Shown here: positions 53,702 through 62,910 of the stretch, piece after piece
Layout: every line of letters begins with the position of its first letter
Position numbering within the stretch: position 1 is the stretch's first letter
DNA from: Escherichia phage DCP2
DNA length: 64,000 nt
Sequence record: OR780565.1
Reading direction: 5' to 3' (one strand)
Made by a program: the position numbers and the translations under genes
Notes under the pieces: model-generated
What the model saw: only the letters and a program-made list of their open reading frames with translations
The model's database searches: none
Told to the model about the DNA's origin: nothing

Positions 53702-53788
53702 GCGAGAATGGTCAAATTGGTAAAGGCACAGCACTTAAAATGCTGCGGAATGATTTCCTTGTGGGTTCGAGTCCCACTTCTCGCACCA
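53702..53788 (+). tRNA. tRNA-Leu (anticodon TAA), CCA encoded
   Basis: Manual cloverleaf: gcgagaa/ttctcgc acceptor, anticodon loop cttaaaa, long variable arm, ggttcgagtcc T-arm. Confidence 0.8.
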
Positions 53789-53793
53789 AATTT

Positions 53794-53867
<74 letters not shown>

Positions 53868-53877
53868 ATTTAATTTA

Positions 53878-53951
53878 CTCCGTGTAGCTCAGTTTGGTAG
53901 AGCGCCTGATTTGGGATCAGGAGGTCCAAGGTTCAAATCCTTGTATGGAGA
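53878..53951 (+). tRNA. tRNA-Pro (anticodon TGG), no encoded CCA
   Basis: Manual cloverleaf: anticodon loop tttggga, ggttcaaatcc T-arm; 2 nt upstream of tRNA-Ser (dimeric precursor arrangement). Confidence 0.75.
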
Positions 53952-53953
53952 CT

Positions 53954-54043
53954 GGAGGCGTGGCAGAGTGGTTTAATGCACCGGTCTTGAAAACCGGCAG
54001 TCGCTCCGGCGACTCATAGGTTCAAATCCTATCGCCTCCGCCA
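53954..54043 (+). tRNA. tRNA-Ser (anticodon TGA), long variable arm
   Basis: Manual cloverleaf: ggaggcg/cgcctcc acceptor, anticodon loop cttgaaa, long variable arm, CCA encoded. Confidence 0.8.
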
Positions 54044-54047
54044 GTTT

Positions 54048-54124
54048 TGCTGATTTAGCTCAGTAGGTAGAGCAACTCACTTGTAATGAGAAGGTCGGCG
54101 GTTCGATTCCGTCAATCAGCACCA
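54048..54124 (+). tRNA. tRNA-Thr (anticodon TGT)
   Basis: Manual cloverleaf: tgctgat/atcagca acceptor, anticodon loop cttgtaa, ggttcgattcc T-arm. Confidence 0.75.
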
Positions 54125-54125
54125 A

Positions 54126-54199
54126 GGCCCTGTAGCTGGAAGGTTCAAGCAAGCGACTCATAATCGCCAGATGGTGGTTCAATTCCACCCAGGGCCACC
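54126..54199 (+). tRNA. tRNA-Ile/Met (anticodon CAT; probably lysidine-modified Ile as in T4)
   Basis: Manual cloverleaf: ggccctg/cagggcc acceptor, anticodon loop ctcataa. Confidence 0.75.
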
Positions 54200-54208
54200 A
54201 AATTAATT

Positions 54209-54296
54209 TGGGGAGTTATCCCGTAGAGGTAGCGGTGTGGACTGTAAATCCATTGTCATTGCGACTCGGGTGGTTCGACTCCACCACTCCCCACCA
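54209..54296 (+). tRNA. tRNA-Tyr (anticodon GTA), long variable arm
   Basis: Manual cloverleaf: ggggagt/actcccc acceptor, anticodon loop ctgtaaa, ggttcgactcc T-arm. Confidence 0.7.
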
Positions 54297-54300
54297 ATTT

Positions 54301-54375
54301 GGATGTGTAGCTCAATGGCAGAGCGATCGCCTGTTAAGCGATTGGTTATAGGTTCGAATCCTATCACGTCCGCCA
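54301..54375 (+). tRNA. tRNA-Asn (anticodon GTT)
   Basis: Manual cloverleaf: anticodon stem atcgc/gcgat with loop ctgttaa, ggttcgaatcc T-arm. Confidence 0.75.
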
Positions 54376-54489
54376 AATTTGTGACAACTGTCACATTAAT
54401 ATCTACTTGACGCGATTATAGGGGTTGAACTGATCACTCTTCTCTTAATTTCGTGTGAAGACATCTTGATTGTTGGAGTAGGTATTAAT

Positions 54490-54565
54490 GTGGCCGTAGT
54501 TCAGTTGGTAGAACTCGAGATTGTGATTCTCGTAGTCATGGGTTCGACTCCCATCGGTCACCCCA
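54490..54565 (+). tRNA. tRNA-His (anticodon GTG) with extra 5' G(-1)
   Basis: Manual cloverleaf: anticodon loop ttgtgat; 8-bp acceptor stem including G-1 opposite discriminator C. Confidence 0.75.
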
Positions 54566-54569
54566 ATTA

Positions 54570-54645
54570 CGGGGCATAGCTCAGAAGGAAGAGCAAGGAC
54601 CTTCTAAGTCCTAGGTCGTAGGTTCGATCCCTACTGCCTCGACCA
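54570..54645 (+). tRNA. tRNA-Arg (anticodon TCT)
   Basis: Manual cloverleaf: anticodon stem aggac/gtcct with loop cttctaa, ggttcgatcc T-arm. Confidence 0.8.
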
Positions 54646-60031: not shown

Positions 60032-60834
<803 letters not shown>

Positions 60835-60835
60835 T

Positions 60836-60865
60836 GTTTACTTCCTCCAAGGACTTTGATACTAT
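60836..60865 (+). promoter_or_regulatory. early promoter with embedded stem-loop upstream of denV
   Basis: gtttac-N18-tactat; inverted repeat cctccaa (60844-60850) / ttggagg (60881-60887) pairs the promoter region with the denV Shine-Dalgarno. Confidence 0.5.
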
Positions 60866-60892
60866 ACATTCATCAACTACTTGGAGGAAATT

Positions 60893-61309
60893 ATGACTCG
60901 TATCAATTTAACACTTGTTTCTGAACTGACCGATCAACATCTTATGGCTGAGTATCGTGAATTGCCACGTGTTTTTGGTATAGTTCGTAAGCATGTGGCA
61001 AACGGTAAGCGCGCTAAAGATTTTAAAATATCTTCTAAATTTATTTTAGGTTCTGGTCATGTTACTTTCTTTTACGATAAGTTAGAATTTTTGCGAAAGC
61101 GTCAATCGGACATTATAACGGAATGCTTAAAACGCGGGTTCAGTATAAAAGATACTGAAGTTCCTGACATCAGCGATATTCCAGTAGAATGGAAAAATGA
61201 TTATAATCCATGCAAATCAGCTATTAAGTTGAGTCAACAACGACTCGATGAAAAAATTTTAATGAAGCCACACTGGTATAAGTATTACGGCAAAAATATT
61301 TACATTTAA
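60893..61309 (+). CDS. denV: endonuclease V, pyrimidine-dimer DNA glycosylase
   Basis: Start set at [12 protein letters not shown], giving 138 aa as in T4 DenV; GGAGG RBS. Confidence 0.9.
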
Positions 61310-61454
61310 ATAACATGGGAATAACCTGGACCTCATGATTCTATGAGGGATTCCCGCCAACCTGTAATAAGGTCGAGCCCAAGTGCGGTAATGGGTAAAT
61401 ACAGAAATGGACAATTCATGCGCCATGGAATGGCCCAAATTTAGAGAGAATAAA

Positions 61455-61994
61455 ATGAGAACATTTTTAACTGGTCCTTATCTATCCCTGATGAATGCTT
61501 TTACACACCATTCTGATGCTAGAGTAGAAGAAATTTGTAAAAACGAATATATCCCACCATTTGAAGACTTACTTAAGCAGTATTGCACACTTCGACTAGA
61601 CGGTGGACGTCAATCCGGTAAATCAACTGCTGTGACTAACTTTGCTGCTAATTGGCTGTATGACGGTGGAACAGTTATTGTTCTTTCTAATACTTCAGCT
61701 TACGCTAAAATTTCTGCAGGCCACATTAAAAAAGAATTTTCTCGTTATTCTAGTGATGATATTCGATTCCGCTTATTTACTGATTCTGTCCGTAGTTTTA
61801 TCGGTAATAAAGGAAGCAAGTTCAGAGGTTTATCTCTTTCGCGAATTTTGTATATAATCGATGAGCCTGTTAAATCTCCTGATATGGATAAAATTTACGA
61901 TATTCATATTGAAACTGTGCAACACTGCTGTAATAGTAAATGCTGCATTGGCGGTATTACTCGTCCGCAGTTTTTCGTAATTGGAATGCAATGA
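61455..61994 (+). CDS. small P-loop NTPase
   Basis: Walker A GGRQSGKST and Walker B-like ILYIIDE; start at MRTFLTG (alternative ATG at 61425). Confidence 0.55.
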   Translation: MRTFLTGPYLSLMNAFTHHSDARVEEICKNEYIPPFEDLLKQYCTLRLDGGRQSGKSTAVTNFAANWLYDGGTVIVLSNTSAYAKISAGHIKKEFSRYSSDDIRFRLFTDSVRSFIGNKGSKFRGLSLSRILYIIDEPVKSPDMDKIYDIHIETVQHCCNSKCCIGGITRPQFFVIGMQ

Positions 61995-62320
61995 TGACAG
62001 ATACGCAACTTTTCGAATATCTTTATTTTTCGCCAAAAACTATTAAAAATAAATTGGTGAATCATTTTGAAATTTTGGCAAATAACAACGTCTTGAGCGA
62101 ATTTTATCCCAAGCAATACAAATTACAAAAAGGTGTATTCAAAGGATGCAGAGTTTTGTGCACTGCTCCTAATGCAAGATTAATGAATAAAATTCCATAT
62201 TTTACCATGGAATTTATTGATGGACCATTTAAAGGATTAATTACTCAAAGTTTAATGGCATATGATTCTGAGCCATTTTTAATTAAAGAACAGTCTTGGA
62301 TAAATTTATTTTCTAATTGA
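61991..62320 (+). CDS. hypothetical protein translationally coupled to the P-loop ORF
   Basis: ATGA overlap with the upstream stop; 109 aa. Confidence 0.5.
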   Translation: MMTDTQLFEYLYFSPKTIKNKLVNHFEILANNNVLSEFYPKQYKLQKGVFKGCRVLCTAPNARLMNKIPYFTMEFIDGPFKGLITQSLMAYDSEPFLIKEQSWINLFSN

Positions 62321-62326
62321 GGTTAT

Positions 62327-62689
62327 ATGAAAGCATATCAAATTCTTGAAGGCACGCATAAAGGTACTATTTATTTTGAAGATGGTATTCAAGCACGAAT
62401 TATTGTCTCTAAAACCTTTAAAGAGGACTCTTTTGTAGACCCGGAAATTTTTTACGGTTTGCATGCCCGCGAAATTGAAATTGAAACACAACCTACAGTT
62501 AAAATTGAAGGTGGTCAGCACCTGAACGTTAACGTTCTGCGTCGCGAAACTCTGGAAGATGCAGTTAAGCATCCGGAAAAATATCCGCAGCTGACCATCC
62601 GTGTATCCGGTTATGCAGTTCGCTTTAACTCTCTGACTCCGGAACAGCAGCGCGACGTTATCGCTCGTACCTTTACTGAGAGCTTGTAA
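62327..62689 (+). CDS. GrcA/YfiD-like autonomous glycyl radical cofactor
   Basis: C-terminal 60 aa ([59 protein letters not shown]) matches the E. coli GrcA / pyruvate formate-lyase glycyl-radical domain, including the RVSGYA glycine; T4 Y06I is a known homolog. Confidence 0.85.
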
Positions 62690-62910
62690 TGGCAAAGATA
62701 ATTATTGAAGGTTCTGAAGATGTGCTAAATGCTTTCGCCGAATGGTTTAGTAATTCAGGCGAACAGCAATTTAATGAAGCATGGAACATGGGTGATATTA
62801 ATGGAATTTATCCTACGACAGAAATTTCTGTTCAGGGATATGGCATTCATGAACCTATTCGTTTAGTTGAATATGATTTGGGAACAGGTGAGGAAGTAAA
62901 ATATGATTGA
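62689..62910 (+). CDS. hypothetical small protein (vs-region)
   Basis: 73-aa ORF; ATG overlaps the GrcA-like stop. Confidence 0.5.
   Translation: MAKIIIEGSEDVLNAFAEWFSNSGEQQFNEAWNMGDINGIYPTTEISVQGYGIHEPIRLVEYDLGTGEEVKYD

Follow-up and report, generated by a model that had tools for sequence, protein, structure and literature searches.

The T4-type vs.8 and vs.7 genes encode a predicted minimal P-loop NTPase and a putative small beta-barrel protein, and follow a candidate structured RNA

We analysed a 64,000 nucleotide stretch of DNA from Escherichia phage DCP2 (sequence record OR780565.1; the whole stretch is referred to below as 'the window') and found that two overlapping open reading frames on its plus strand are, by sequence comparison, orthologues of T4 vs.8 and vs.7, the pair that opens the vs.8-to-vs.3 early operon. 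The product of the first, as judged from its conserved motifs and its structure model, is a real minimal single-domain ASCE (RecA-like) P-loop NTPase that is predicted to be catalytically competent. Both genes are already catalogued from T4; what is new here is an RNA motif in the spacer upstream of vs.8, which is the most novel thing at the locus and may matter more than the proteins. For the proteins themselves we tentatively favour, at just short of an even chance, a model in which an oligomeric early Vs.8 ATPase and a Vs.7 adaptor form an accessory host-takeover or counter-defence module.

Gene identity and surroundings

The first reading frame extends from an ATG at position 61455 to a TGA at 61992–61994 (61455..61994 with its stop codon, plus strand) and encodes a protein of 179 amino acids that begins MRTFLTG. 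The second extends from an ATG at 61991 to a stop at 62320 (61991..62320, plus strand) and encodes 109 amino acids beginning MMTDTQLF. The stop codon of the former and the start codon of the latter overlap within an ATGA at 61991..61994 (plus strand), seen in the window sequence and in a comparison of the same junction in related contigs. The pair is flanked upstream by denV (60893–61309; MTRINL...) and downstream (62327–62689) by a gene for a 120-residue Gly_radical/GrcA-like protein (Pfam PF01228, E 2.2e-18).

Bases 61300–62700 match 886 phage records and display 98.6% nucleotide identity to Yersinia phage ZN18; the window belongs to a Tequatrovirus-type phage. Annotated relatives name the two products Vs.8 and Vs.7, and their genes are followed there by vs.6, vs.5, vs.4, vs.3 and regB. 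The T4 proteins (UniProt P13318 for Vs.8 and P13317 for Vs.7), described as 'conserved hypothetical proteins', are orthologous to those of the window, are encoded in the same order (denV, vs.8, vs.7, vs.6) with the same stop/start overlap, and differ from them in nothing functional. The two proteins correspond to PHROG families 1488 and 2049, with Vs.7 also assigned to Pfam PF26834, and tblastn searches recovered 1,009 phage records for vs.8 and 922 for vs.7.

An earlier note on this DNA, made from its letters alone, had described the MRTFLTG reading frame as carrying GGRQSGKST and ILYIIDE within about 180 residues, and had placed it in the T4 vs region. The window sequence bears out the description, and the placement is right: vs.4 (whose product has a solved structure, PDB 7uq2) and vs.3 (encoding TadIV-1, PMC13243611, with a solved homologue, 9wiw) lie close by. 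The same note did not recognise the reading frames as the already annotated vs.8 and vs.7, and it missed the RNA element upstream of them.

Several starts have been annotated for vs.8. A longer in-frame reading frame beginning at 61407 corresponds to 195 amino acids and is chosen by many gene callers (cluster P0001), while the T4 record MT984581.1 gives Vs.8 a length of 216 amino acids, with 37 additional N-terminal codons that span the conserved RNA element (L006, 2354–2464). In the window the frame used for the 216-residue T4 protein is closed by a stop codon (MRDSRQ...MAQI, then stop), and the Kosakonia and Dhakavirus relatives have these upstream nucleotides, which are conserved there too, in yet another reading frame. 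Because the reading frame of the extension differs between phages, the upstream conservation is non-coding and the ATG at 61455, which follows a conserved purine-rich GAGA box, appears to be the real start. We rejected the starts that yield 195–216 residues, as the extension shows no coding conservation; those annotations are probably mistaken.

Several database labels in this region deserve comment. In some GenBank and PDB records, homologues of Vs.8, Vs.7 or Vs.3 are named 'RegB domain-containing' or 'endoribonuclease', and in one Vs.8 goes under the name 'terminase large subunit' or 'toxin'. No evidence stands behind these names, which seem to have spread from the annotation of regB nearby. 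Further upstream, a single gene encoding 98 amino acids (60538–60834) occupies the space between the lysozyme gene e and denV, where T4 carries ipIII and ipII. At its start the product resembles proteins that related phages have annotated as internal head proteins and that begin ...MKTYKEFITEAK, and the gene is a variable internal-protein cassette.

Motifs and fold of Vs.8, and its relation to terminases and helicases

The Walker A motif (P-loop) of Vs.8, GGRQSGKST (residues 50–58; 61602..61628, plus strand), has the terminase-type RQxGK[ST] form and is invariant in a set of 17 homologues that reaches down to 41% identity. It is followed by R124-G125 and then by the Walker B motif ILYIIDEP (residues 131–138, including the D136/E137 catalytic pair), which together span 61824..61868 (plus strand) and are likewise marked by homologue conservation; the ILYIIDE portion corresponds to residues 131–137 and nucleotides 61845–61865. 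Positions that are invariant across the 17 homologues comprise D49-G-G-R-Q-S-G-K56, R113, R124-G125, I134, I135, E137, P138 and, at the C-terminus, G177 and Q179; D136, at least 90% conserved, comes close to this. A conserved arginine is found about 13 residues before Walker B, and the final strand ends in G-x-Q.

These features are those expected of the ASCE division: a GxxxxGK[ST] Walker A sequence (GGRQSGKS, residues 50–57), a Walker B of the form hhhhD plus Glu, and a RecA-like alpha/beta core. The last of these is seen in an AlphaFold (AF2) model of Vs.8 (pLDDT 79.8), in which an N-terminal helical pair precedes a five-stranded alpha/beta domain. The motifs, invariant or nearly so down to approximately 40% identity, are not fortuitous and mark a genuine NTPase, as the earlier note had proposed; it had allowed that profile searches might expose the Walker A match as accidental, an outcome that did not materialise.

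When a profile was run against 1.84 billion representative proteins, it returned 51 relatives of Vs.8 at E <= 0.001, most of the full-length ones being about 150–185 residues long. The most distant of them retain the fold signature, sometimes with GH[ST] in place of GK[ST] and with the Asp-Glu pair gone; only in such distant His variants is the pair missing. Since such members have exchanged the lysine for histidine and lack Asp-Glu, hydrolysis would not be universal in the family. Four of its distant members (P0065, P0067, P0069 and P0075) display the Lys-to-His change in Walker A (xRQSGH[ST]) and have no Walker B Asp-Glu, and their sequences suggest a non-catalytic sub-branch.

Above their thresholds, Pfam, NCBIfam and PADLOC provided no family for either Vs.8 or Vs.7, and searches of PDB sequences with single sequences and with profiles returned no solved relative of either protein. 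A Foldseek comparison against viral models indicated that Vs.8 resembles small uncharacterised proteins of other T4-type phages and of jumbo phages. Separately, residues 156–177 of Vs.8 (61920–61985) form a cysteine-rich insertion, modelled with low confidence (VQHCCNSKCCIGG) and present only in Vs.8 of the Tequatrovirus type, which could be a small metal-binding knuckle. A match of Vs.8 to the Pfam 'Conotoxin' family was discarded as an artefact of these same cysteine-rich residues.

The only specific sequence affinity that recurred for Vs.8 was to the large subunits of terminases. The PHROG terminase large subunit profile (phrog_2) matched Vs.8 with an E-value of 4e-6 across about 105 residues of its 807 positions, and matched 17 of the 31 family members. 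Pfam Terminase_6N gave 15.0 bits against a cut-off of 22, and was also sub-threshold in 15 of the 31. Alignment of Vs.8 with T4 gp17 by hhalign (E 0.0015, probability 17%) placed GGRQSGKS in register with the gp17 P-loop (LSRQLGKTT, residues 160–168), aligned the Arg-Gly motif, and paired IIDEP with YIDEC. Vs.8 thus displays the [GS]RQxGK[ST] sequence and the conserved arginine ahead of Walker B that are looked for in a terminase, but its profile score does not rise above the curated threshold.

Structurally, the nearest neighbours of the Vs.8 model were the first domains of SF2/SF1B helicases and the ATPase of the T4 gp17 terminase. When compared with subdomain I of the terminase ATPase N-terminal region (T4 gp17, PDB 2o0h; Sf6 gp2, 4idh), Vs.8 amounts to approximately 180 residues that lack the lid (subdomain II) and the nuclease; its chain ends at residue 179, directly past the strand that follows Walker B, leaving no lid and no RNase H-like nuclease. 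Terminase large subunits are expressed late and are linked to small-terminase, portal and head genes, whereas vs.8 is expressed early, its neighbours are denV, vs.7 and vs.6, and the actual gene 17 is located elsewhere in T4. Relative to the first RecA-like domain of SF2/SF1B helicases (Mfd, DEAD-box proteins, Dda, RecD2 and Pif1) the identity of Vs.8 is 8–21%. SF1/SF2 helicases contain two RecA-like domains in tandem, while Vs.8 contains one and therefore has none of the motifs of domain 2; the SH3-like part is a separate polypeptide, the predicted barrel of Vs.7.

We rejected the assignment of Vs.8 as a terminase on the grounds of its sub-cut-off score, the missing lid and nuclease, its early expression and its neighbours, and its assignment as a helicase on the grounds of its single RecA-like domain. 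The earlier view that the protein is too small for either is upheld by its 179 residues, which hold one RecA-like domain. The sequence comparisons are consistent with Vs.8 being a minimal stand-alone ATPase of the terminase/helicase lineage, with an affinity to terminases that lies below family thresholds. If so, a single-domain terminase-lineage ATPase that acts outside DNA packaging would broaden the known uses of the terminase/helicase fold.

Pairing with vs.7 and proposed role

The structure model of Vs.7, like that of Vs.8, is confident. It points to an SH3/KOW-like small beta-barrel core (approximately residues 40–95) behind an N-terminal helical hairpin, for which the nearest known kind are the SH3, KOW and Tudor-like small beta-barrels (such as the KOW domains of Spt5 and the tandem SH3-like domain of KIN17). 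The N-terminal 40 residues of the protein are dispensable in many lineages.

We examined the arrangement of the two genes in 35 dereplicated viral contigs that encode Vs.8 relatives at 34–100% identity; a wide alignment lacked a sufficiently conserved block, and this set rests on a narrower one. The vs.7 gene lies directly downstream of vs.8 in 31 of the 34 contigs that could be evaluated. Conversely, among 19 contigs found via Vs.7, all 18 that could be evaluated have vs.8 immediately upstream. Where a Vs.8 relative is present the junction is nearly always CAATGATG or TAATG, with an ATGA or TAATG overlap retained at 34 of 35 junctions; the exception is L110, in which vs.7 starts about 118 nucleotides downstream of vs.8. 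Three contigs (L093, L111 and L112) have no vs.7, and in these a vs.5-like gene takes its place in the overlap with vs.8. The gene for a distant Vs.8 relative (P0060) stands alone between the topoisomerase and rIIA genes. The linkage of the two genes, as read from these contigs, is strong and asymmetric: Vs.7 seems to need vs.8, and not the reverse.

The earlier note had taken the overlap as a sign of a two-component module, to be abandoned if the two reading frames were not conserved together. They are conserved together, in the contig counts given above, and the overlap is real. The overlap itself, though, is generic: between vs.7 and vs.3 the window has four further gene junctions, and three of them overlap too. 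Because overlaps are common in the operon, and because vs.8 overlaps vs.5 where vs.7 is absent, the ATGA is no specific evidence for such a module, and vs.8 also occurs without vs.7.

Published data place both proteins at the start of infection. Proteomic analysis of T4 detected Vs.8 and Vs.7 and assigned both to the class 'early RNA, early protein', whereas the genes of the operon that it lists besides these (vs.6, vs.4 and vs.3) were assigned to 'early RNA, middle protein' (PMC9697503, supplementary files 4 and 6). Cloning in E. coli is possible for the T4 segment that extends from vs.8 to vs.3, and when Vs.3 to Vs.8 were each expressed from 'the promoter of vs.8', only Vs.3 (TadIV-1) impaired type IV Thoeris; Vs.8 and Vs.7, each expressed singly, produced no inhibition (PMC13243611). 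Literature searches on vs.8 and vs.7 returned this one cloning paper and the one proteomics supplement, and no functional study. The two, which rank among the earliest T4 proteins, have been retained in about a thousand of the T4-type phages sequenced, and other genes of their operon encode Vs.3, which is a proven sponge of immune signals, and Vs.4.

In the model that we favour, Vs.8 would assemble into a homo-oligomer that hydrolyses ATP, with the conserved R124 acting in trans as in packaging ATPases. Oligomerisation is probable because one RecA-like domain on its own does not form a complete active site, and the proposed role of R124 follows from its invariance and from its placement where packaging ATPases have a conserved arginine. 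Vs.7 would be translated, in a coupled fashion, from the mRNA that also encodes Vs.8. It most likely binds to Vs.8 and, as an adaptor or regulator, connects ATP turnover with a target, and this target is likely a host or phage macromolecule that is handled in the first minutes of infection. The pair would then act as an immediate-early host-takeover or counter-defence module, outside replication and packaging. A counter-defence role is plausible from the gene neighbourhood, and the ATPase reading singles out K56, E137 and R124 as the residues for mutant alleles.

It is possible, although on balance we consider it unlikely, that Vs.8 is instead an autonomous small ATPase, that Vs.7 is an unrelated accessory neighbour, and that their overlap represents compact packing of a T4 early operon. 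The overlaps at the other junctions of the window, the overlap of vs.8 with a vs.5-like gene where vs.7 is absent, the solitary P0060 and the dispensable N-terminus of Vs.7 all agree with such independence. It is harder to reconcile with the finding that vs.7 has vs.8 immediately upstream in all 18 evaluable contigs, and with the persistence of the adjacent pair across several genera at approximately 35–45% protein identity while ip genes and vs.6 come and go. The early-protein class that Vs.8 and Vs.7 share, unlike the listed downstream genes of the operon, also argues against it.

An improbable alternative is that Vs.8 binds a nucleotide without turnover and serves as a sponge or sequestering protein in the manner of Vs.4 and Vs.3, with Vs.7 stabilising it. 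Vs.4, the structure of which is solved, is reported to be a CBASS antagonist (Jenson et al. 2023). Distant members of the Vs.8 family keep the fold despite loss of the catalytic lysine and of Asp-Glu, which would suit a binding function, but T4-type members keep both the P-loop lysine and the Asp-Glu pair (D136 being nearly invariant), which argues for catalysis. With Vs.3, which sequesters N7-cADPR (PMC13243611), two genes of the operon are tied to immune signalling; the known sponges, however, are not P-loop proteins, and Vs.8 had no effect on type IV Thoeris (PMC13243611).

We give little credence to the further idea that Vs.8 is a terminase-derived decoy, an early-made ATPase fold that would engage Avs-type STAND sensors of terminase large subunits without activating them. 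Finally, the proposition that the Walker-like motifs are fortuitous and the reading frames non-functional, which could appeal to the lack of a curated Pfam or NCBIfam family above threshold, retains next to no probability and is already refuted by conservation and proteomic data: the motifs do not vary between genera, the structure models of the two proteins are confident, both proteins have been detected in T4-infected cells, and both genes recur in the many phage records recovered by tblastn.

A candidate structured RNA upstream of vs.8

The spacer between denV and vs.8 is 145 nucleotides long (61310–61454). Within it, nucleotide conservation, a covariance model (R1) and covariation define the core of a candidate structured RNA at 61346..61407, on the plus strand. 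The proposed fold is a three-way junction, in which P1 pairs 61357–61359 with 61392–61394, P2 is the hairpin ACCU-GUAAUA-AGGU (61360–61373), and P3 is the hairpin GCC-CAAGUGC-GGU (61377–61389), all on the plus strand. A second leader module (AUGCGCCAUGGAAUGGCCC), together with a purine-rich ribosome-binding region before the vs.8 ATG, occupies 61415..61454 on the same strand and was recognised from cross-genus conservation. The sequence GCCAWGGAAYGGCCC is conserved across genera and has no other exact copy in the window; since this module falls in different reading frames in different phages, it is not coding.

The nucleotide block of the RNA element is far more conserved than the flanking proteins, to the extent that the spacer block CCTGTAATAAGGTCGAGCCCAAGTGCGGTAA is identical in the window and in phages whose Vs.8 is only about 40% identical. 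By blastn the spacer is found in 1,124 phage records, which include Vequintavirus phages without vs.8. The R1 model, built on 22 diverse copies, scores 75.9 bits on the element of the window. Matches to R1 together with exact matches to the core pattern located the element on the vs.8 strand, 50–530 nucleotides upstream of vs.8, in 34 of the 35 contigs. Some contigs of the Kanagawavirus type carry a tandem second copy about 114 nucleotides apart (L087, 2762–2823 and 2876–2935; L071, 356–417 and 470–529; L025, 1987–2048 and 2100–2159), in which the P3 region of the second copy is differently composed.

Covariation is clearest at one closing base pair, which across 43 distinct sequences appears as A-U (19), U-A (10), C-G (9), U-G (4) and G-C (1), with no mismatches; the two pairs that adjoin it also display double changes. 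No sequence leaves the ACCU/AGGU hairpin unpaired, which displays one double change, from A-U to G-C (in L093), and the covarying columns abut invariant anchors. On an alignment that was fitted to it, the three-way-junction model is 93.7% paired, compared with 84.6% in shuffles (none of 500 reached the former value), and all slid controls were lower as well. In a first version of the model a single long helix had joined ACC to the GGU of GGUAA; this version was given up for the three-way junction, since the partner with which ACC covaries is the nearer GGU. A pseudoknot that would join GACCUU to AAGGUC, with 72.7% paired and only one-sided changes, is not claimed.

Folding of the spacer as a single sequence performed no better than shuffles (z = 0.55), and a plain RNAalifold consensus of the spacer was uninformative. 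Rfam 15 contained no match at E-values up to 10 for 60800–62800, and the whole window, compared with Rfam at the gathering score, produced nothing besides tRNAs. A scan for sigma-70 promoters found none in the spacer; a 'GTTTAC' box resembling T4 early promoters is present in some lineages, without a conserved −10 partner. Among 5,426 E. coli genomes there was no match to the element, and three matches in bacterial genome contigs were set aside as GC-rich look-alikes that lack the rest of it. The comparative evidence identifies the leader as the site of a candidate covarying three-way-junction RNA of about 50 nucleotides for which Rfam has no match. The element may belong to the vs.8 mRNA, form the 3′ end of the upstream transcript, or be a small RNA of its own.

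Outside T4-type phages the element is carried by Vequintavirus and by unidentified gut-phage contigs, where it is found on the strand of the tRNAs, either inside a tRNA cluster or at most about 1.2 kb from one. It is situated between tRNA genes in L052, 32 nucleotides downstream of a tRNA cluster in L074, a few hundred nucleotides upstream of tRNA genes in L030, L037, L040, L055 and L061, and about 1.2 kb downstream of a cluster in L043; the available stretches of L044, L065 and L072 contain no tRNA gene. Near the element in these non-T4-type contigs there is no homologue of vs.8 or vs.7. Because the element covaries, has no match in Rfam, and is shared near tRNA clusters by otherwise unrelated large phages, it suggests a small phage RNA that has not been described before. 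The small stable RNAs of phage tRNA clusters (T4 RNA C and RNA D) offer the closest parallel, in that the element is likewise small, has a covarying stem and, in non-T4-type phages, lies near tRNA clusters. It differs from them in having no Rfam match and in lying, in T4-type phages, about 6.7 kb from the tRNA cluster and before vs.8. The window itself contains a cluster of ten tRNA genes (53702–54645, plus strand), which points the same way as the element and precedes it by about 6.7 kb.

As a long shot, the RNA, Vs.8 and Vs.7 might constitute one cassette in which the RNA, as a stable small RNA or as a leader, is bound or remodelled by the ATPase, or the RNA might act together with tRNAs to evade a host attack on translation. 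The packaging ATPase of phi29 is RNA-dependent, and provides a loose comparison for a Vs.8–Vs.7 pair that binds or remodels the RNA. Either version, if real, would tie a previously undescribed class of phage RNA, associated with tRNA clusters, to an orphan early ATPase.

One further arrangement recurs among the Vequintavirus carriers. In Escherichia phage isim (L023, 2178–2516), and equivalently in L030, L040 and L067, downstream of the element come a pair of hairpins, a near-consensus sigma-70 promoter, a gene for a protein of 112 amino acids and, after these, the tRNA cluster. The N-terminus of this protein is very basic (MADTTKKRRRRGRP...) and its C-terminal part acidic.
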